From a bacterium (GTDB lineage: Bacteria; Patescibacteriota; Minisyncoccia; Phycocordibacterales; JBBTRF01): 64,000 nt of DNA. The position numbers and the translations under genes were made by a program. The stretch spans positions 98,092-162,091 of the forward strand of contig JBAXTI010000001.1 of the NCBI GenBank assembly GCA_037130265.1, given 5' to 3'. How positions within the stretch are numbered: position 1 is the first letter of the stretch; every line of letters starts with the position of its first letter. Under the pieces are notes generated by a model. It ran no database searches and was not told where the DNA came from. It saw only the letters and a program-made list of their open reading frames with translations. Positions 2-38,309 of this stretch are shown here, one piece after another.

Positions 2-1060
2 GGCCGTATCGTGCGCCTCCAGGCGAATGAGCGAGAAGAGGTGAAGAAGGTGTATGCCGGAGAAATCGCCGCTGCGGTGGGTCTCAAGGATGCGCTTACC
101 TCACACACTTTCTGTGACGAAGAGCAGCCGGTTATTCTCGAAGCAATCAAGTTTATGGAGCCGGTGGTCTCTCTTCGTGTAGAGCCAAAGACCAAAGCCG
201 ATCAGGAAAAGATGGGCATGGCTTTGAAGAAACTCGGAAACGAAGACCCAACCTTCAAGATTAGTTCCAACTCAGAGACTGGTGAAACCATTATTTCAGG
301 TATGGGAGAACTTCACTTGGAAATCATGGTGGACCGTATGAAGCGTGAATTCGGTGTCGAAGCGAACGTTGGCAAGCCTCAGGTAGCATACCGAGAGACC
401 ATTCAGGGTGAGGCAGAGGCAGAAGAGAAGTACATCAAGCAGACCGGAGGAAAGGGTCAGTACGGTCACGTGATCATCACACTCCGACCAATGAAGCCAT
501 TGGAAGAGGGGGAGAAGGTGAAGAAGAATGTCAGCCGATTCGCCGACTTCGAATTTATCAACTCAATCAAGGGAGGTGCGATTCCAGGAGAATTCATCCC
601 TGCGGTGGAGAAGGGTGTACACGAGGCGATGGACCGAGGTGTTATCGCCGGATACCGAATGGTGAATGTGTCTTGTGAATTGACGTTCGGTAGCTACCAC
701 GATGTGGACTCATCAGAAATCGCGTACAAGATCGCTGGTTCATTGGCTTTCCAGAGCGCATCAAAGCGTGCGAAGCCGGTGATTCTCGAGCCGATCATGA
801 AGGTGGAGGTATTGTTCCCAGAGAAGTTTATGGGTGATATCACTGGTAGCATCTCTTCAAAGCGAGGTACTATCGAGGAAATGACTGAGCGAGGCCAGGC
901 GAAGGTGATGCATGCCAAGGTACCGTTGTCCGAAATGTTCGGTTACACCACCCAGCTCCGATCTATGACCTCAGGACAGGGTTCTGCAACCATGGAATTC
1001 GATCATTACGCGCCGGTGCCGAAGTTTGTGGAGCAGCAGATTATTGAGGCTCGTAAATAA
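2..1060 (+). CDS. fusA: Elongation factor G, C-terminal part (5' end outside window)
   Basis: Translation ([33 protein letters not shown]... domains III-V) is unmistakably EF-G; ORF is open to the window edge, stop TAA at 1058-1060. Confidence 0.95.
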
Positions 1061-1168
1061 GGAAATACAAAACACCCTTCTTGGGGTACGCGTAAAAGCT
1101 TGCTAGCTTTTCGCTCCGGCTCGGCCCGACGGCCTCCGCAGTCCCCAAGAAGGGTGTTTTGTATTTCC
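1061..1168 (+). repeat. 26-bp perfect inverted repeat (1061-1086 / 1143-1168) enclosing a conserved 64-nt structured element (copy A, 1083-1146)
   Basis: ggaaatacaaaacacccttcttgggg ... ccccaagaagggtgttttgtatttcc is a perfect palindrome. The enclosed core aligns with 15627-15690, with compensatory changes in two hairpins. Confidence 0.75.
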
Positions 1169-1244
1169 TGAATCACGAAACTCAACTCGCATTCCCTCAC
1201 AAAAGGTGTTTTTGTTTTCTTACACATCCCGATCAATTTCAAGG

Positions 1245-1277
1245 TCAAAAAGAAAACCCCGCGGTTGGGCCGCGGGG
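1245..1277 (-). terminator. Rho-independent terminator of the minus-strand 142-aa gene
   Basis: ccccgcgg-ttgg-ccgcgggg hairpin; A-run on the plus strand is a U-tract on the minus strand. Confidence 0.6.
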
Positions 1278-1318
1278 TGGTAAAATCTCTGGTTCGGAAT
1301 CCCATTGGTTTCCATATG

Positions 1319-1747
1319 TCAGTCCGTATAAACGGGTCTTTTTATCTTCCGATCGAAACCAGTCAAGACGTAGACCTCGGGAGTTGCCAGGATGAACAAT
1401 CCATCTCCGTCGTCATCAATCCAGCCTTCGATCAGTTGACCGTCGTGCTCTGGCCAGCCACTGATGACCCGTGCGCCGAAACAGTAGTGGTCCGGGGCAG
1501 TCGGCATGTATTTGATAGCAAAGGCTAGGACCTTGATATCAGCGTCTGCGGGTGCTATTTCCGACCGGTTGAGGTAGTGGATACTGGCGATTTTGAGCCG
1601 GAAAGGCTCTTTTTTATATTGGAAATCCACCATATCATCGATTATCGGCCCCGATACGAAGCGAAAGTGGCAGACCTCGGGGTAGAGACCGTTCTCGACC
1701 GCGCGGACGGTTAGATACATAGAAGGCGGGTTCCTTTCTGGATTCAA
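1319..1747 (-). CDS. Hypothetical protein (142 aa) inserted between fusA and tuf
   Basis: Clean ORF with its own terminator; protein-like composition (acidic DDDGDG patch); no family recognised by eye. Confidence 0.55.
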   Translation of the reverse strand: MNPERNPPSMYLTVRAVENGLYPEVCHFRFVSGPIIDDMVDFQYKKEPFRLKIASIHYLNRSEIAPADADIKVLAFAIKYMPTAPDHYCFGARVISGWPEHDGQLIEGWIDDDGDGLFILATPEVYVLTGFDRKIKRPVYTD

Positions 1748-1943
1748 AGTGTTGCTTATTCAAATCCGCTCTAAAGCCTATTCTTTTGAGGGGTGGGTGT
1801 CAATGAGGCTGGTTCATGTTTCGACACCTCGCACTCAATTCCTTTATCAAAAATTAGGCTTTTCTTGAATCATTCTTAGTGATTTCTTTATCACCCTTTT
1901 GATATGCTTTCTTAGTCTGCCTTGTCGACGGCAGACTTGGTTG

Positions 1944-1973
1944 ACACAAGTTTATCTTAAGATAAACTTGTGT
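1944..1973 (+). promoter_or_regulatory. Perfect 30-bp palindrome (acacaagtttatctt|aagataaacttgtgt) overlapping a ttgaca -35-like hexamer and the antitoxin start: candidate TA autoregulatory operator
   Basis: 15+15 nt perfect inverted repeat ending 2 nt before the ATG (1976) of the Phd-like antitoxin gene. Confidence 0.6.
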
Positions 1974-1975
1974 AT

Positions 1976-2224
1976 ATGAAAACCAACATTATCGGCCTTA
2001 AAGAGCTGCGGGAGAATATGGAAAAATATATCTCAGAAGTAGAAAAAGGGCGGTCTTTTGTGGTAGTGAAAAAGTCGAAACCCGCTTTCAAAATGGTGCC
2101 TGTCGACGAGTGGGGGGACGAGGGAGTATGGAAGACCCTGGTCGATTTTACCGAAATTGATCCAAATGGGGTGCGTATCGAAGAAGTAATCGCCTCGCTG
2201 AAACGTCTCGATGCACAAAATTGA
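1976..2224 (+). CDS. Type II antitoxin, Phd/YefM family
   Basis: Small acidic protein MKTNIIGLKELRENMEKYISEVEKGRSFVV..KSKPAFKMVPVDEW matches the Phd/YefM fold pattern; overlaps the downstream toxin by 14 nt. GTG at 1970 is an alternative start. Confidence 0.75.
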   Translation: MKTNIIGLKELRENMEKYISEVEKGRSFVVVKKSKPAFKMVPVDEWGDEGVWKTLVDFTEIDPNGVRIEEVIASLKRLDAQN

Positions 2225-2450
2225 TAAATTCCTCGCCAAGCTGGAAGAAAAGCAAAGAGAGCGGATCCTGTTAATCATCACACGGATCAAAGCACACGAT
2301 TTTACCGGTCTCGACCTCAAAAAGCTCAAAGGAGGCTTTGATATCTATAGAGTACGTTCTGGGCAATACAGGATCCTCTTTCACCTGACAAAGGACGGCA
2401 TCTTTCTTCTCGATGTCACCAGCCGCGACGACACCACCTACCATCTATAG
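2211..2450 (+). CDS. Type II toxin, RelE/ParE superfamily
   Basis: 79 aa; motif GGFDIYRVRSGQYRILFHLTKDGIFLLDV is typical of the RelE/ParE (plasmid stabilisation) core; overlaps the antitoxin gene. Confidence 0.75.
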   Translation: MHKIDKFLAKLEEKQRERILLIITRIKAHDFTGLDLKKLKGGFDIYRVRSGQYRILFHLTKDGIFLLDVTSRDDTTYHL

Positions 2451-2775
2451 AGTGATGGGTATAGTAATATAGAGTGTAATCATTCAACCCTGCCGCCGCC
2501 ACTGACGAAGACCTCTCGCAGGCGCGACGGCGCCGAGAGGAGCCGAAATTTCAGTAGAAATTTACGGCGTGTCTGAGGCAGTGGCGGCAAGGTTGACTTT
2601 ATTGCTCAATTTGTTACTATACCCATTGTCGCATTTTTTGCGTCTTTGGCCGTTTCGAATCAAAAGAAACGTCCTGGTATTAACTCGATTTATTATCATT
2701 AATTTTTGTTCTTAAGTTACAAGGCTCAGCCACTCTCGCGCGTTGAGCTTTGAGAATTAGGGACTCATTAAATAT

Positions 2776-3972
2776 ATGGCAGAAGTATTCGATCGATCAA
2801 AGCCTCACGTTAACGTCGGTACTATTGGTCACGTCGACCACGGCAAGACTACTCTTACCGCGGCTCTTACCGTTGTGCAGTCAAAGAAAGGTCTCGCGAC
2901 CCCAATTGCGTACGACCAGGTAGCAAAGGCGTCTGAGAAGGATGGACGACGAGATCCTTCAAAGATCATTACCATTGCGATTTCACACGTTGAGTACTCA
3001 ACTGTGGCTCGACACTACGCTCACGTCGACTGTCCAGGTCACGCTGACTACGTCAAGAACATGATTACTGGTGCCGCTCAGATGGACGGCGCTATTCTCG
3101 TGGTATCTGCTGTAGACGGACCAATGCCACAGACTCGAGAGCACATTCTCCTCGCAAAGCAGGTGGGTGTTCCAAAGCTTGTTGTATTTTTGAACAAGTG
3201 TGACATGGTAGATGACAAGGATATGCTTGACCTCGTTGAGGCCGAGATCCGAGATTTGATGGACAAGTATGGATTTGACGGAAAGGGAACCCCAGTGATC
3301 CGAGGTTCAGCGCTCAAGGCGATCGAAGGCGACCCAGTATGGGTAGCAAAGATTGATGAGCTTTTGAATGCGCTCGACACCTACATCCCTATGCCAGTGC
3401 GTGAGATCGACAAGCCATTCTTGATGCCTATCGAAGACATCTTCTCTATTGAAGGACGAGGAACCGTGGTTACTGGCCGAATCGAGCGAGGAATCGCAAA
3501 GGTTGGCGAGGAAGTTGAAATCATTGGTCTTAAGCCGACTGCAAAGTCTACTATCACCGGTATCGAAATGTTCAACAAGCAGTTGAACGAAGGTATGGCA
3601 GGTGACAACGCGGGTGTCCTCCTCCGAGGTACTCGAAAGGAAGACGTAACCCGAGGTCAGGTACTTGCAAAGCCAGGTACTACCACTCCTCACACTGATT
3701 TCGAAGGAGAAATCTACGTTCTCAAGAAGGAAGAAGGTGGCCGACACACTCCATTCTTCAATGGTTACAAGCCACAGTTCTACATCCGAACCACAGACGT
3801 CACCGGTGAGGTAACCCTCGCTGCTGGTACTGAAATGGTTATGCCAGGAGACACTGTAAAGTTCATCGTTAAGCTCGTAGCGCCTATTGCGCTCGAAGAG
3901 AAGATGCGATTTGCAGTTCGAGAAGGCGGACGAACCGTAGGTGCGGGTGTGGTCACTAAGATCACTAAGTAA
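2776..3972 (+). CDS. tuf: Elongation factor Tu
   Basis: [32 protein letters not shown]-motifs; full length 398 aa. Confidence 0.98.
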
Positions 3973-4016: not shown

Positions 4017-4382
4017 ATGACCACAAAAGAAACAAAGAAATCTGACAAGGCCAAGACACACAAGGGCCAGGAGGTGAGCCACAAGCTCCGCATTCGTGTG
4101 CGAGCGTACGAGCACAAGATCCTCGATGCTTCTGTGAAGCAGATCATGGATACAGCGCTTCGATACGATGCCACCATCCTCGGACCGATCCCACTTCCTA
4201 CAGAAATCAAGAAGTACACTGTAAATCGAGCAGCCTTTGTCTACAAAGATGCACGAGAGCAGTTTGAGATGCGAGTTCACAAGCGATTGGTAGACATTGT
4301 GAATCCAAATCCAAAGACAATTGAGGCTCTCACCAACCTGAGTCTGCCTTCAGGAGTCAACATCGACGTAAAGATGATCTAA
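4017..4382 (+). CDS. rpsJ: 30S ribosomal protein S10
   Basis: [13 protein letters not shown]...NIDVKMI; canonical position after tuf. Confidence 0.93.
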
Positions 4383-4422
4383 TCCACCCATAATCCACTT
4401 ATAACCGCCTCACCTAACCCAC

Positions 4423-5037
4423 ATGAAATTCATTATCGGAACAAAACTGAATATGACCCAGGTCTTCGACCAAGAGGGAAATGTTCACCCAGTGACCATC
4501 CTCAAGGCTGGTCCGGTGACCGTCACTCAGGTCAAAGAATCTGCGAAGGATGGCTATTCAGCTGTTCAGATTGGATTTGGCGAGATTCGCGAGAAGCTCG
4601 TTTCGAAGCCTCAGCAGGGACACACCAAGGCGCTCGGTCTTTTCCGAACGTTCAAGGAATTTCGAGTTATTGCTCCTTCTCATAAAGTTGGCGACAAATA
4701 CGATGTATCTCTCTTCAGTGAGGGCGACGACGTGACCGTCTCTTCTATCAGTAAGGGTAAGGGTTTCCAGGGTGCGGTGAAGCGACACGGCTTCAAGGGA
4801 GGTTCCCGAACTCACGGTCAGAAGCACTCTGAGCGAGAAGTAGGTACTATCTCTGGTGCAGGACGAGCCGGCGGCCGTGTAGCTCCAGGTATGCGAATGC
4901 CTGGACGAATGGGTGGTGATCGTGTTACTGTCAAGAACCTCAAGATCGTGCAGATCAACCAAGCAGAGAACCTCATCCTCGTTTCTGGAGCAATTCCAGG
5001 CCGAAGGGGTACTTTGGTAGAAGTGATGGCACAGTAA
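4423..5037 (+). CDS. rplC: 50S ribosomal protein L3
   Basis: GTKLNMTQVFDQEGNVHPVTIL...GFQGAVKRHGFKGG; operon order. Confidence 0.93.
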   Translation: MKFIIGTKLNMTQVFDQEGNVHPVTILKAGPVTVTQVKESAKDGYSAVQIGFGEIREKLVSKPQQGHTKALGLFRTFKEFRVIAPSHKVGDKYDVSLFSEGDDVTVSSISKGKGFQGAVKRHGFKGGSRTHGQKHSEREVGTISGAGRAGGRVAPGMRMPGRMGGDRVTVKNLKIVQINQAENLILVSGAIPGRRGTLVEVMAQ

Positions 5038-7006: not shown

Positions 7007-7007
7007 A

Positions 7008-7049
7008 AGCCAAAAGAAAAATCCCCGAGAGGGGTTTTTTCTTTTGGCT
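7008..7049 (+). terminator. Rho-independent terminator after rplB, interrupting the S10 operon
   Basis: Nested hairpin agccaaaag..cccc-gaga-gggg-tttttt..cttttggct. Confidence 0.7.
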
Positions 7050-7095
7050 ACATAGCTCGGGCGTTTACACTTCGTAACTTTCCATATCTAGCGTA

Positions 7096-7123
7096 TTGAC
7101 AAAGTAATGACATCGTCTATACT
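7096..7123 (+). promoter_or_regulatory. Sigma70-like promoter for the dinJ-yafQ pair (ttgaca-17-tatact)
   Basis: ttgaca at 7096-7101, tatact at about 7118-7123, followed by a GAGGG RBS and ATG 7130. Confidence 0.55.
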
Positions 7124-7129
7124 AGAGGG

Positions 7130-7399
7130 ATGAATACTACCATTCAACTTCGTATCGATAAGGCGACCAAAGTAAGCGCTCAAAAGGTGCTTGCCGAGCT
7201 TGGCTTGGACATGTCTTCCGCCATGAAGCTCTTTCTCCGCACGGTGTCACGGACCAAATCGATTCCTTTCGAAATCCGCACGGTAAATGGCTTTACTCCT
7301 GCCCAGGAGGCGCGAATGCTCAAAGAGATTGCTTGGACCGAGAAGTATGGAAAAGGATACAAGACCGCTGAAGAATTAACAAAACACCTGCTCTCGTAA
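7130..7399 (+). CDS. dinJ: Type II antitoxin, RelB/DinJ family
   Basis: MNTTIQLRIDKATKVSAQKVLAELGLDMSSAMKLFLRTVSRTKSIPFEI matches the DinJ ribbon-helix-helix N-terminus (RIDEDLK..A..VL...GL..S.....L..V..E..LPF). Confidence 0.8.
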   Translation: MNTTIQLRIDKATKVSAQKVLAELGLDMSSAMKLFLRTVSRTKSIPFEIRTVNGFTPAQEARMLKEIAWTEKYGKGYKTAEELTKHLLS

Positions 7400-7402
7400 G
7401 TA

Positions 7403-7681
7403 ATGCTTGAAATAAGAGAGACGAAACAATTTAAAAAGCAATTCAAACGAGTTGCCCGATCGGGCGATTTCGATATGAGACTGTTCCATGCAGTGCTTAA
7501 TGTGTTGGCAAGAGGCGAATCTCTTGATGAAAAGTATCGAGATCACCAGCTTTCCGGTGACATGAAGGAGGCTCGAGAATGTCATCTAAAAGGTGATTTG
7601 TTGTTGGTGTATAAGATAAGAAAGGAAATTCTCGTTTTATCCCTTGTCGGCATTGGTAGCCACTCTGAACTCTTCGACTAA
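7403..7681 (+). CDS. yafQ: Type II toxin, YafQ family mRNA interferase
   Basis: YRDHQLSGDMKEARECHLKGDLLLVYKI...GSHSELF aligns with the YafQ core (YKDHPLQGSWKGYRDAHVEPDWILIYK...GTHAALF). Confidence 0.85.
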   Translation: MLEIRETKQFKKQFKRVARSGDFDMRLFHAVLNVLARGESLDEKYRDHQLSGDMKEARECHLKGDLLLVYKIRKEILVLSLVGIGSHSELFD

Positions 7682-7784
7682 ATGACGCCCAACAACAAGC
7701 ATTCTATTCTTTTTGCACCCTCCTTTCTGGGCCAGCAGGAGAGTTGAGTTGACTTTATTTCTGCTTCTGCTAAGATACTAAGCC

Positions 7785-8156
7785 ATGGCTCAGGTGAGCT
7801 ATTTTCATTCATACATGACACGATCACTCGCAAAAGGACCATACGTCGCGGAGATTCTTCTCAAGAAGATCGCCGGCAAGAAGCCAGAACAAGCTGGTGT
7901 TATTAAGACCTGGGCTCGAGACAGCCAGATCTCTCCTGAAATGGTGGGATATAAGTTTGGCGTTCACAATGGTAAGGATCATATTGAAGTACTTGTCACC
8001 GAGGAAATGGTAGGTCACCGCCTCGGTGAATTTGCGCTTACCCGAAAGTTTGTACGACACGGAGGTAAGATGCAGAAGGAGCTTGAAGCCAAGAAGAAGG
8101 AGGCTGAGATCGCAGCTGCCCAGACCGCAAAGGCTACCGTGGCAGAAAAGAAATAA
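7785..8156 (+). CDS. rpsS: 30S ribosomal protein S19 (true start may be ATG 7815; Ala/Lys-rich C-terminal tail)
   Basis: [18 protein letters not shown]...[13 protein letters not shown]. Confidence 0.92.
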
Positions 8157-10940: not shown

Positions 10941-11522
10941 ATGAACGGAGTAAAAGAAAAGCAGAGTAAGACATTCGAGACCATCAAGGGGGCACTCGGC
11001 ATCACCAATGTGATGGAAACACCAAAGCTTGTAAAAGTGGTGCTTTCGTCTGGCATTGGTTCTGTAAAGGACAAGAAGAAGATCGAGCTCATCGCCGACC
11101 GTATGAACCGCATTGCGGGTCAGAAGGTGGTGGTGAAGACTGCGAAGAAGTCCATCGCAACCTTCAAGTCTCGAGAGGGCGACCCTGCAGGCTACCAGGT
11201 GACCCTCAGAGGCGACCGAATGGTAAACTTCCTCAACAAGCTCATCAACATCGCTCTTCCTCGAACCAAGGACTTCCGAGGTATTGCTCGAAAGGCGATC
11301 GATGAGATGGGAAACATCAATATCGGTATCCGTGAGCACACCATCTTCCCTGAGACTTCAGACGAAGAGCTCAAGGACGTCTTCGGCTTCGCGGCGACCA
11401 TTGTCACTACGGCGAAGGATGCGAAGTCGGCAGAAATCTTCTTCGAGTACCTCGGCATCCCATTTATGAAGCCTGAGGAGGAGAAGAAATTGGCAGCTAA
11501 GGGTCGAAAATCCAAGGAATAA
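10941..11522 (+). CDS. rplE: 50S ribosomal protein L5
   Basis: ...NIALPRTKDFRGI...EHTIFPE... Confidence 0.93.
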   Translation: MNGVKEKQSKTFETIKGALGITNVMETPKLVKVVLSSGIGSVKDKKKIELIADRMNRIAGQKVVVKTAKKSIATFKSREGDPAGYQVTLRGDRMVNFLNKLINIALPRTKDFRGIARKAIDEMGNINIGIREHTIFPETSDEELKDVFGFAATIVTTAKDAKSAEIFFEYLGIPFMKPEEEKKLAAKGRKSKE

Positions 11523-14322: not shown

Positions 14323-15603
14323 ATGGCAACGCTTATCGAAAAAATGAAACTCATCTTCACTGACAAGCTCCTTCGCAAGAAGGTGTTGTTTGTGTTGATT
14401 GGCCTGGTCTTGTTCCGCCTCCTCGCTACTATCCCAGTCCCAGGAGTGGATGTCATCCGACTGGAAGCCTTTTTCCGCACCAATGAATTTTTGAGTCTCA
14501 TCAACATCTTTTCAGGTAGTGGTTTGTCGAATCTTTCTGTCGTAATGCTTGGTGTCGGTCCGTACATCACTGCGTCTATCATTATGCAGCTCCTCACCAT
14601 GATGTCGCCAAAGCTTAAGGCGATGTATCAAGAAGAAGGGGATGCTGGACGCATTAAGTTTTCTCAATACTCTCGACGTCTCAGCATTCCTCTTGCGATG
14701 GTACAGGCGTACGGCTTCCTCCTTCTCTTGTCGAAGCAGGGGTTGCTCGGCAATCTCAGCGGCACCAGTCTTTTTGTGAATATTATCGTGATCACTGCTG
14801 GTTCAGCGCTCCTTATGTGGATTGGTGAACTGATCACCGAATACGGCATCGGCAACGGTCTCTCTATGATCATCTTCGCTGGTATCGTCTCACGCGTTCC
14901 TGCGGTGGCCGGACAGTTCCGAGACATTCTCGCGGCCGATCCTTCAAAATTACCTCTCTATATTGCTTTTGCACTTATTGCCTGTGTCGTGATCTGGGCG
15001 GTGGTTATTATCACCGAAGCGGAGCGTTCGATCCCTGTCACCTATGCCAAGCAGATGCACGGTAGCAACGCTACCAACGGTGGTTCCACCTATCTTCCTT
15101 TGCGAGTCAATCAGGCTGGTGTGATTCCAATCATTTTCGCTTTGTCGATCCTCCTTTTGCCGCAAATGGTCTTCAACTTCTTGAAAGAATTGAGTACTAA
15201 TCCAACTCTCATCGATATCTCACAGAAGGCGCTCCTATTGCTGAACAACAACTGGTTTCATGCGATCGCATATTTTGTGCTCGTCTTCCTCTTCACTTAC
15301 TTCTACACCGCGGTTACGTTTGATCCTCAGCAGATTGCCTCAAACCTCCAGAAGGGTGGCGCATTCATCCCAGGTGTTCGACCAGGCGACTCTACCGCTG
15401 AGTATCTTTCAAAGGTGGTGACTCGTATTACGCTCGTTGGTGCGGTCTTTTTGTCAGCAATTGCGGTGCTCCCACTCATCTTGCAGAATACGACTGGCAA
15501 CACTTCGTTTGCGATTGGCGGTACTGCGCTTTTGATTGTTGTGTCTGTCGTCATTGATTTGGTGAAGAAGATTGAGGGACAGGTTTCGATGCGGTCTTAC
15601 TAG
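14323..15603 (+). CDS. secY: Preprotein translocase subunit SecY
   Basis: 10-TM protein; SIIMQLLT, GIGNGLSMIIFAGIV signatures. Confidence 0.95.
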   Translation: MATLIEKMKLIFTDKLLRKKVLFVLIGLVLFRLLATIPVPGVDVIRLEAFFRTNEFLSLINIFSGSGLSNLSVVMLGVGPYITASIIMQLLTMMSPKLKAMYQEEGDAGRIKFSQYSRRLSIPLAMVQAYGFLLLLSKQGLLGNLSGTSLFVNIIVITAGSALLMWIGELITEYGIGNGLSMIIFAGIVSRVPAVAGQFRDILAADPSKLPLYIAFALIACVVIWAVVIITEAERSIPVTYAKQMHGSNATNGGSTYLPLRVNQAGVIPIIFALSILLLPQMVFNFLKELSTNPTLIDISQKALLLLNNNWFHAIAYFVLVFLFTYFYTAVTFDPQQIASNLQKGGAFIPGVRPGDSTAEYLSKVVTRITLVGAVFLSAIAVLPLILQNTTGNTSFAIGGTALLIVVSVVIDLVKKIEGQVSMRSY

Positions 15604-15626
15604 TAAAGAAATTGCGGTGTATACAT

Positions 15627-15703
15627 GGGGTACGCATAAATCTCTGCTGAGATTTTGCTCCGGCTCGCGCCAGTCGCGCTCCGCAGTCCCTGTTTTTTGT
15701 TTG
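15627..15703 (+). terminator. Copy B of the conserved 64-nt structured element (15627-15690) plus U-tract: terminator of secY/spc operon
   Basis: Aligns base-for-base with 1083-1146, with compensatory changes in both hairpins; followed by tgttttttgtttg. Confidence 0.7.
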
Positions 15704-15758
15704 CGCGCGGGTAGGTGAAAACACTGACAGACGGGCCTTCGGGTGATATTATGGCGAC

Positions 15759-16415
15759 ATGAACGAAAAAGCATCTACAGCTACAGCGGCTCCGCAAACC
15801 TTCATATTTATCGGCCGATCGGGGTCGGGGAAGGGTACGCAGGCGACCTTGCTTCAGGCATATTTGGAAAAGGGTGCAGGCAGGAGTGGCGACGTTGCTG
15901 GTGCGGGGGCTGCGCCGGTGAAATATCTCCAGACCGGTGCGGAGTTCCGCTCTTTTTTGCAGGGCGATTCGTATACGCAGAAGACGGCGAAGGCTTTGTC
16001 GACAAAGGGGGCATTACAGCCGGCGTTCTTGGCGATCTACATGTGGGCGAAGTTTTTCACCGAGAAGCTCACTGGAGGCGAGCATTTGATTATTGATGGT
16101 ACGCCTCGCAAGCGTGATGAGGCGCAGGTGCTCGACAGCGTCTTCGGCTTTTATGGTCGCACGAAACCAGTCATCCTTTTCATGAATGTTTCTGAGGTAG
16201 AGGCGGCTCGAAGACTCGCCGCCCGCCAGCGCCTCGACGACAACAGTGTCGAAATCCGTGGCCGCCTCGCTTGGTACAAGACCGATGTTGAGCCAGCAGT
16301 GGAGTGGTACCGTACCAATCCAAACTATCGCTTTGTCGAAGTGAACGGCGAACAGTCGGAAGCGAAGATTCACGAGGATATTGTCGCTGCAGTTGTGGCC
16401 ACGCCCACCAAATAA
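15759..16415 (+). CDS. adk: Adenylate kinase
   Basis: FIFIGRSGSGKGTQA P-loop, short LID without a zinc knuckle; position after secY. Confidence 0.88.
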   Translation: MNEKASTATAAPQTFIFIGRSGSGKGTQATLLQAYLEKGAGRSGDVAGAGAAPVKYLQTGAEFRSFLQGDSYTQKTAKALSTKGALQPAFLAIYMWAKFFTEKLTGGEHLIIDGTPRKRDEAQVLDSVFGFYGRTKPVILFMNVSEVEAARRLAARQRLDDNSVEIRGRLAWYKTDVEPAVEWYRTNPNYRFVEVNGEQSEAKIHEDIVAAVVATPTK

Positions 16416-33670: not shown

Positions 33671-33677
33671 TTTGTTG

Positions 33678-34069
33678 TGGAGATGGGAGGAATTGAACCC
33701 CCGTGCAGAAGAGTCTAGTGAATGGGTCTACGAAGGGTAGGGCGCTTCTATGTCTGCGGGGCAGACAATTCGCGTGTGCCGTTATGAAACGACCGAAAGG
33801 CGGCTCGCGCTATTCCCATGATCTCGAATCGGCGGCGGGACTCCGCTGATCCTATTCCACAAATATAGCGTCAGGACCGAACGGTGTGGAAACCATCCGG
33901 CTGGCGTCGCTTAGGCTTTAGCGTAAGCGAATGCAAAGTCGTTCGCACTTGCGTACGGAGACTTTACAGATCCAAGTTTTGCACTTAGAATTTTCAGCCT
34001 TTTTAAGAGTTACTGAAGCTCTCCTTCGCACATTCAAGAGATATTCTTCCGTCGATGCCTGGCATCCCC
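33678..34069 (-). ncRNA. ssrA: tmRNA (SsrA), about 392 nt
   Basis: Minus strand 5'-GGGGATGCCAGGCATCGACGG... and 3'-...GGGGGTTCAATTCCTCCCATCTCCAC (tRNA-like T-arm and acceptor); candidate tag ORF ...GCGAACGACTTTGCATTCGCTTACGCTAAAGCCTAA (ANDFAFAYAKA*); smpB immediately upstream. Confidence 0.85.
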
Positions 34070-38219: not shown

Positions 38220-38292
38220 GCGCCCGTAGCTCAGTTGGTAGAGCAGGTGTCTTATACACACCTGGCCGGGGGTTCGAATCCCTCCGGGCGCA
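38220..38292 (+). tRNA. tRNA-Ile, anticodon UAU (TAT)
   Basis: Cloverleaf GCGCCCG/CGGGCGC acceptor, GCTC-AGTTGGTA-GAGC D-arm, anticodon stem GGTGT/ACACC with loop CTTATAC (U33, A37), T-arm GGGGG-TTCGAAT-CCCTC; CCA not encoded. Confidence 0.8.
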
Positions 38293-38309
38293 CATTTTTT
38301 CAGACGAGG

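Follow-up and report, generated by a model that had tools for sequence, protein, structure and literature searches.

Between secY and adk lies a 65-nt structured element (copy B). The question raised by this locus is whether the element terminates the secY transcript and, as an earlier sequence-only reading had proposed, does so with regulated read-through into adk. The window, i.e., the whole 64-kb stretch of DNA that was analyzed, falls in the Patescibacteria according to its SecY and EF-Tu homologues, and the named relatives, with about 65% SecY identity, are Parcubacteria, Paceibacterota, or Taylorbacteria. We consider it fairly probable, with appreciable room for doubt, that copy B is a clade-specific branched hairpin module of about 65 nt that ends the secY transcript, with adk being restarted from a promoter of its own. 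In function, copy B itself is ordinary; what is undescribed is the repeat family to which it belongs.

By direct reading, copy B is GGGGTACGCATAAATCTCTGCTGAGATTTTGCTCCGGCTCGCGCCAGTCGCGCTCCGCAGTCCCT / GGGGUACGCAUAAAUCUCUGCUGAGAUUUUGCUCCGGCUCGCGCCAGUCGCGCUCCGCAGUCCCU and begins 24 nt after the secY stop codon (15601-15603) on the same strand. The U-rich run GUUUUUUGUUUG (GTTTTTTGTTTG) follows its last nucleotide directly, as had been claimed for this site. The distance to the adk ATG is 67 nt from the end of the core and 56 nt from the end of the U-rich tail. The minimum-energy fold is a three-way junction (−22.8 kcal/mol; Table 1), and copy B has covariance-model scores of 90 and 84 bits. Its closing helix P1 reads GGGG.AC with GU.CCCU, then G, then UUUUUUGUUUG, and thus ends 1 nt ahead of 9 U in 12 nt. 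This helix is short, with six pairs and a bulge, the outermost pair being G-U, and it encloses a 57-nt branched insert. When more flanking sequence is included, the minimum-energy fold takes alternative pairings, and its energy is no better than that of shuffles (z −0.85).

Table 1 Coordinates of copy B, its relatives in the window, and the neighboring features
Feature	Position	Strand	Basis or remark
Copy A, a 23-bp outer palindrome tipped by the core (1083-1146)	1060..1169	+	−69.3 kcal/mol, z −10.7; covariance model
Cargo between copy A and the inverted third copy (fusA-tuf gap)	1170..2479		1.3 kb of inserted genes
ORF of 142 aa	1319-1747	−	No Pfam match; own terminator 1278-1256
Phd/YefM-like antitoxin (Pfam) and 79-aa partner ORF	1976-2450		Putative toxin-antitoxin pair
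Third copy, core 2509-2574	2480..2600	−	P3 base of the CUCUCG/CGAGAG subtype; 67.6 bits
tuf promoter-like site TTGACT-16-TACTAT	2593-2620		Overlapped by the base of the third-copy palindrome
secY	14323..15603	+	Pfam SecY; gene whose transcript copy B would end
Copy B, three-way-junction core	15627..15691	+	Direct reading; minimum-energy fold; covariation
Copy B, P1	15627-15630 and 15632-15633 with 15686-15691	+	Minimum-energy fold
Copy B, P2	15634-15636 and 15638-15644 with 15649-15658	+	Minimum-energy fold
Copy B, P2 loop UGCU and bulged U	15645-15648 (loop); 15637 (bulge)	+	Minimum-energy fold
Copy B, P3a	15661-15663 with 15681-15683	+	Minimum-energy fold
Copy B, P3b	15667-15670 with 15676-15679	+	Minimum-energy fold; loop CAGUC
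U-rich tail GUUUUUUGUUUG, putative termination tract	15692..15703	+	Relatives lacking the core have a hairpin and U-run in the same place
adk promoter-like site CTGACA-17-TATTAT, TG before the −10 box	15724..15752	+	Ends 6 nt before ATG 15759
adk	15759..16415	+	Pfam ADK; gene downstream of copy B

The sequence-only reading had taken this element to be a second copy of the structure at 1083-1146 (copy A), without the long outer palindrome of the latter, and this was borne out by three exact blocks common to both copies and by the covariance model. The blocks are GGGGTACGC-N-TAAA, GCTCCGGCTCG, and CTCCGCAGTCCC (in RNA form, GGGGUACGC-N-UAAA, GCUCCGGCUCG, and CUCCGCAGUCCC), and each has exact matches in the 64-kb window only at copies A and B. 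Copy A begins directly after the fusA stop, at 1060, and its core is carried by a 23-bp palindrome (1060-1082 paired with 1147-1169) that is absent from copy B and that has an A-rich 5′ arm and a U-rich 3′ arm. In the model alignment, the two cores are 72% identical; nearly all the differences lie in the tips of the P2 and P3 hairpins and are compensatory. Both copies were detected with a covariance-model E of about 1e-21.

When the covariance model was run over the 64-kb window with filters off, three copies were found in total, the only addition to copies A and B being the one at 2509-2574 on the minus strand. All three lie in the first 16 kb, and no copy was detected by the model in the remaining 48 kb (16-64 kb). 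Mismatch searches of the window for extra copies returned only chance matches within coding regions. The third copy forms the tip of a long palindrome whose base overlaps the −35 box of a promoter-like site for tuf.

The fold common to copies A and B consists of P1 (GGGG.AC with GU.CCCC), a 10-bp P2 with a bulged U and a UGCU loop, and P3, in which CGG/CCG is followed by an internal loop and a 4-bp tip. The folding z-scores of the 64-65-nt cores (−1.4 to −1.7) are unremarkable. Thermodynamics alone does not single out the core, and the case for the structure therefore rests on covariation, which was also examined on a set of 10 members. Two covariance models, R1 built from 4 sequences and R2 from 10, together recovered 16 distinct members. 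In the alignment of these 16, which was fitted to the covariance model and so favors the structure, 91.5% of the cells are in standard pairs compared with 65% in shuffles, 20 of the 23 pairs show changes on both sides, and none of 500 shuffles attained the observed pairing values. Sliding the partners by 1-3 columns as a control lowered the pairing to 34-52%. Given these slid controls and the many double changes, the fold is secure despite the model-fitted alignment: the three-way junction of the core is supported by covariation. Pairing is highest in P2 (99.4%) and in P3b, the tip of P3 (98.4%). The count is lower for the base of P3, as its register differs between two subtypes of the family (CGG/CCG and CUCUCG/CGAGAG).

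Two further properties of the alignment bear on the level at which the core acts. Not a single G-U pair is present among the 224 cells of P2 and P3b in the 16 members, and both strands of the core fold equally well. The core thus need not act as RNA; such a pattern would arise where pairing is required of both strands, or of the DNA itself. In addition, several unpaired positions are conserved in the family (the bulged U, the UGCU loop, CUCG, and the CGUC loop), which suggests a partner that reads them. The element matched no model of Rfam 15 when the whole window was searched at gathering scores. At E ≤ 10, no match was obtained for 15560-15780, nor was anything found for the element at the copy A locus, near which only weak matches were seen, to an unrelated plain terminator at 1256-1278.

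The size of about 65 nt and the three-way junction are within the range of small ribozymes, and self-cleavage processing transcripts at gene boundaries could be imagined on these grounds. This is hardly credible, as the element does not match the Rfam models of the hammerhead, twister, twister-sister, pistol, hatchet, or HDV ribozymes, the hammerhead core motifs CUGANGA and GAAA are absent, the junction nucleotides vary by subtype, and the conserved positions are located in stems and hairpin loops. A ribosomal-protein leader or an rRNA mimic was also rejected, as neither fits a position 3′ of genes in both orientations.

What occupies the same place in relatives bears indirectly on termination. 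The secY-adk spacers of three relatives lack the core and carry instead a canonical plain hairpin with a U-run (AAAAAAGCGTGCC..GCACGTTTTTTT in L034, AAAACTCCGC..GCGGGGTTTTAC in L037, and AAAAAATCCCC..GGGGGATTTTTTGTTTT in L041). In L080, whose SecY is 93% identical, secY is followed by a simple 12-bp hairpin, and the contig ends at the stem, leaving the tail out of sight. In L028, whose SecY is likewise 93% identical, a family member of another subtype is found 31 nt after secY. In this positional orthologue the U-run lies 5′ and an A-run lies 3′, so that it is not an obvious terminator in the sense direction. Taken together, the plain hairpins and the L028 member indicate that the slot always holds a hairpin and that the branched core is optional. 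By position, then, the assignment of copy B to the secY terminator slot holds. In L028, a second, unrelated long perfect palindrome (GAGTACCCTCGGATTTTGCATCC...GGATGCAAAATCCGAGGGTACTC) is present at 11440-11520, between the family member and the adk promoter.

A similar relation is seen after rplB. Here the window has a plain hairpin as its rplB terminator (7016-7040), and the outer stem and flanking sequence show homology to L021, where a longer hairpin sits between conserved outer arms and carries the core at its tip. The sense copies after fusA and rplB lie inside palindromes of an A-tract, a stem, and a U-tract; copy A and the after-rplB copies resemble bidirectional terminators in that their A-rich and U-rich arms match.

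Copy B has much of the anatomy of an intrinsic terminator. It is located shortly 3′ of the stop codon on the coding strand, a U-rich run begins within 0-2 nt of its G+C-containing closing stem, and it sits in the slot of the relatives' plain terminators. It differs from the simple small-loop hairpin of intrinsic terminators in that a conserved branched insert of 57 nt, comprising two covarying hairpins, takes the place of the loop. A terminator consensus scan did not list copy B, the scan being limited to loops of 3-8 nt and unable to score a branched structure. With a short P1 stem and a branched insert, the termination efficiency of copy B is uncertain. A further difference from intrinsic terminators is that the same core also occurs inverted beside promoters, where the copies have no U-run on the sense strand, and the core is therefore not intrinsically a terminator part. 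Judging from position and anatomy, copy B most likely serves as a terminator.

We propose that such modules would sit at the tips of gene-boundary hairpins in the ribosomal gene cluster, or replace them. At copy B, P2 and P3 would fold during transcription, and closure of the junction by the 3′ strand of P1 (GUCCCU) would coincide with the emergence of the U-run GUUUUUUGUUUG from the polymerase. The whole module would then act as the hairpin of a factor-independent terminator and end the secY transcript, and adk would be transcribed separately, as a leaderless mRNA, from a promoter 30-60 nt downstream. The core is not specific to secY; through transposition or gene conversion, it would be acquired, lost, and passed from one hairpin slot to another.

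Evidence for a separate adk transcript comes from the promoter-like site listed in Table 1, from whose position a leaderless adk mRNA would follow. In each of the six secY-adk spacers that were compared (those of the window and five relatives), a −10 box lies 6-7 nt ahead of the adk ATG, and separate transcription of secY and adk thus looks like the norm of the clade. On the simplest reading, secY would be terminated constitutively and a leaderless adk mRNA would be initiated anew. Promoter-like sites whose −10 box is extended were seen to end 6-8 nt before the start codons of rpsS (7749-7785), adk (15724-15759), and the antitoxin gene (1941-1976), and L028 likewise has one close to a start codon (3530-3561). 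Leaderless mRNAs and frequent re-initiation may, as these sites suggest, break up the classical str/S10/spc operons in this lineage. secY and adk look like separate units with a terminator and a restart promoter between them, an arrangement normal for the clade, and the finding by itself changes little.

Regulated read-through from secY, which the sequence-only reading had raised, found no such footing: there is no Rfam match at E ≤ 10 and no competing structure upstream, and adk has a promoter-like site of its own. A secY-specific regulatory role is unlikely for a repeat family that is present in both orientations and is exchanged between sites. A terminator controlled by a ligand or factor that sets the read-through from secY to adk/map would be consistent with a structured element whose conserved unpaired positions directly precede the U-run, and some folds do contain an alternative pairing of GGGGUA with UGCUCC. 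This reading is nevertheless very improbable, as there is no covariation for a conserved competing helix, fusA and rplB are followed by the same core, which also precedes the tuf and rpsS promoters in inverted orientation, close relatives have plain hairpins at the secY slot, and the position of the adk promoter is conserved. A riboswitch or regulated attenuator was rejected as well, both for want of an aptamer match and for want of a gene-specific terminator/antiterminator arrangement.

Family members were found only in L028/L076, L021 (=L075), and L074, whose EF-Tu proteins are at least 95% identical to that of the window, as well as in the metagenome contig L026 and, weakly, in L034/L035. 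No member was detected in L032, L037, L039, or L041. An exact-pattern scan of 185,579 species genomes with the 3′ half of the core gave 25 matches, of which one was real (L021) and the other 24 were chance matches in high-G+C genomes. The same kind of scan with the 5′ half in the JGI metagenomes gave one real match (L026), and scans of viral contigs returned chance matches only (≤23 bits, all of high G+C). A search of the full-text literature found no description of the motif. The family distribution is narrow, young, and clade-specific within the Patescibacteria, and the family is undescribed and lies outside any Rfam family.

All copies with a known setting are in the ribosomal gene cluster, and all are intergenic, with three in the window and three to five per relative in the regions examined. 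The sense copies are directly after fusA, rplB, and secY, and those in terminator slots are all sense to the upstream gene (9/9). Seven copies are antisense to the local operon and upstream of promoters; they have no U-run on their own sense strand, and their outer stem overlaps the −35 box (GTTGAC) of the promoter-like sites that restart tuf and rpsS. Copy B and the L026 member are solo copies.

By subtype and slot, the nine terminator-slot copies stand for at least about seven separate placements; their orientation is therefore not random, which keeps an RNA-level role in play. Under such a reading, the element would be a 3′-end module that binds a protein or blocks exonucleases and so stabilizes or processes highly expressed mRNAs of the ribosomal cluster, or a small RNA derived from the 3′ UTR, with termination being secondary. 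The conserved unpaired nucleotides and the restriction of the copies to highly expressed genes agree with this, and the long outer duplexes of copy A and of the copies related to it would be plausible substrates for RNase III. We regard this reading as distinctly unlikely, however, given the seven antisense copies upstream of promoters, the lack of G-U pairs, the dispensability of the core at each slot in close relatives, and the narrow and young distribution of the family.

The core is not inherited with its site. Copy B shares 94% identity with the after-fusA copy of L074 and 92% with the after-rplB copy of L021/L075, compared with 72% with copy A and 65% with its positional orthologue, the secY copy of L028. 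At a given slot, the outer stems are orthologous across genomes and vertically inherited, and only the tips change. These two facts point to exchange of the tip by transposition, gene conversion, or allele replacement. The core thus appears to move or convert between hairpin slots, and its sequence conservation probably reflects this exchange, or a binding partner, rather than termination. Homogenization within genomes (concerted evolution) was not borne out by the identity matrix, in which core variants turn up at different slots in different genomes.

At two conserved gaps, fusA-tuf and rplB-rpsS, variable cargo is enclosed by a sense copy on one side and an antisense copy on the other. In the window, the fusA-tuf cargo includes the putative toxin-antitoxin pair, and a promoter-like site (TTGACA-16-TAAACT, 1941-1968) precedes the antitoxin gene and the 79-aa ORF, which are apparently expressed as a leaderless operon. 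The same gap of L076 (3709-6421) contains a diversity-generating retroelement (DGR) with a target ORF, bAvd, and a reverse transcriptase; its variable repeat (4288-4421) and template repeat (4784-4917) are 134 nt long and 90% identical. That of L074 (4289-6901) contains a reverse-transcriptase gene and unknown ORFs. No reverse transcriptase is near any copy in the window, whose genome lost or never had the retroelement at fusA-tuf. A role of the element as an accessory hairpin of the DGR was rejected, as neither of the L076 copies (3289-3354 and 7146-7211) adjoins the variable repeat or the template repeat.

Within the S10 operon, the gap between rplB and rpsS forms a second hot spot of insertion. 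Its contents are a RelB/YafQ pair in the window (7007-7785), where no cores flank it, a RelB remnant and an NYN nuclease gene in L028 (2320-3560) and L021, a methyltransferase/ResIII helicase island in L074 (12483-19354), and dehydrogenase, NYN, and LysE genes in L032 (288-3272).

No recombinase or transposase was found beside any copy in the 64-kb window or in the 10-20-kb flanks of the relatives, and a Y1_Tnp domain was present in none of the genes called next to the copies in the same regions. The outer boundaries of the copies show neither a target-site duplication nor a clean insertion boundary. When the filled rplB site of L021 is compared with the empty one of the window (7016-7040), the inner stem is replaced and there is no clean insertion. 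A MITE or cut-and-paste transposon was therefore rejected: inverted copies do flank cargo, but duplications and clean filled/empty sites are lacking.

These observations also weigh on the possibility that the family acts as DNA, i.e., as folded single strands or cruciforms that a transposase or recombinase (HUH/RAYT, IS200/IS605, or tyrosine-recombinase type) recognizes. The palindromes would then bound integration hot spots, and copy B would be a solo site or relic whose U-run came from a pre-existing terminator. The sense/antisense pairs around variable cargo are in line with this, as are the lack of G-U pairs and the equal folding of the two strands, the bulge and loop sequences that are kept (bulged T, loop TGCT, and loop CGTC), the core variants at non-orthologous slots, and the breaks of two assemblies inside palindromes. 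It is rather unlikely all the same: neither an enzyme beside the copies nor target-site duplications were found, copy B and the L026 member stand alone, the copies are confined to the ribosomal cluster and not scattered through intergenic DNA, and the outer stems are vertically inherited at each slot while only the tips change.

A broader reading combines this mobility with the terminator role that we favor for copy B. The core could be a new small mobile or recombinogenic module of the candidate-phyla-radiation bacteria that targets gene-boundary hairpins, its inverted pairs delimiting hot spots in essential ribosomal operons. The cargo exchanged would serve defense and diversification, namely the DGR, toxin-antitoxin pairs, the NYN nuclease, and restriction-modification genes; the module would supply the terminator and promoter insulation that make the insertions tolerable; and a dedicated protein would recognize the bulged U, UGCU, and CGUC loops in RNA or folded DNA. 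We put this whole reading forward tentatively, as something possible that we would not expect to hold.

Several known systems of structured repeats can be compared with the family, which functionally comes nearest to intrinsic and bidirectional terminators and to the REP, BIME, and REPIN class. The REP, BIME, and REPIN elements of proteobacteria are short extragenic palindromes at gene 3′ ends, often arranged as inverted pairs and associated with RAYT transposases. They show compensatory stem changes, occur in more than one subtype per genome at non-orthologous places, and have roles in termination and in protection of mRNA 3′ ends. The present family is likewise palindromic, extragenic, present in several copies per genome, and marked by compensatory stem changes, and it is found at gene 3′ ends, in subtypes and inverted pairs, with a non-orthologous distribution. 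Unlike REP and REPIN sequences, it has only three copies in 64 kb, all in the ribosomal cluster, and is branched and not a simple imperfect hairpin. Furthermore, no RAYT gene was seen, and its pairs bracket kilobases beside restart promoters, whereas REPINs are tight doublets.

Other structured intergenic repeats act as terminators or RNase III substrates, such as the Correia elements of Neisseria, inverted pairs of DNA-uptake sequences, and the mycobacterial TRIT motifs, which are simple inverted repeats in tens to hundreds of copies. The family resembles them as a conserved motif that recurs at terminator positions within one lineage, but it has no sequence similarity to those motifs. The attC sites of integrons, which terminate cassettes on the 3′ side, are imperfect palindromes that fold, keep certain extrahelical bases conserved, and vary at the tip, which is branched in some; toxin-antitoxin genes are frequent in these cassettes. 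Folded palindromes, conserved extrahelical bases, and toxin-antitoxin cargo are also features of the present family. In contrast to attC sites, the family flanks its cargo in inverted and not direct orientation, lacks the conserved R/L box pattern, and is set inside essential ribosomal operons, and no integrase or attI was seen.

The interest of the family lies in its being an uncatalogued, covariation-backed motif from a poorly studied bacterial lineage with very small genomes. It indicates that terminator hairpins can carry a conserved, exchangeable branched tip, and its inverted pairs mark two insertion hot spots in the str/S10 ribosomal operons, which are highly conserved elsewhere. Should there be a partner enzyme, the family would give a handle on the movement of cargo in organisms with few recognizable mobile elements. 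The family is also a practical annotation marker, and assemblies of these genomes appear to break because of its elements.

Breaks inside or at palindromes are seen in three independent assemblies, namely at the starts of L078 and L079 (at about window positions 2489 and 2423) and at the end of L080. The 2480-2600 hairpin contains the start of the ENA contig NODE_1, and the secY hairpin is where L080 breaks off. Elsewhere in the window, a tRNA-Ile gene (anticodon TAT; 38220-38293) and a standard tmRNA gene (33675-34069) were identified, both ordinary and unrelated to copy B.
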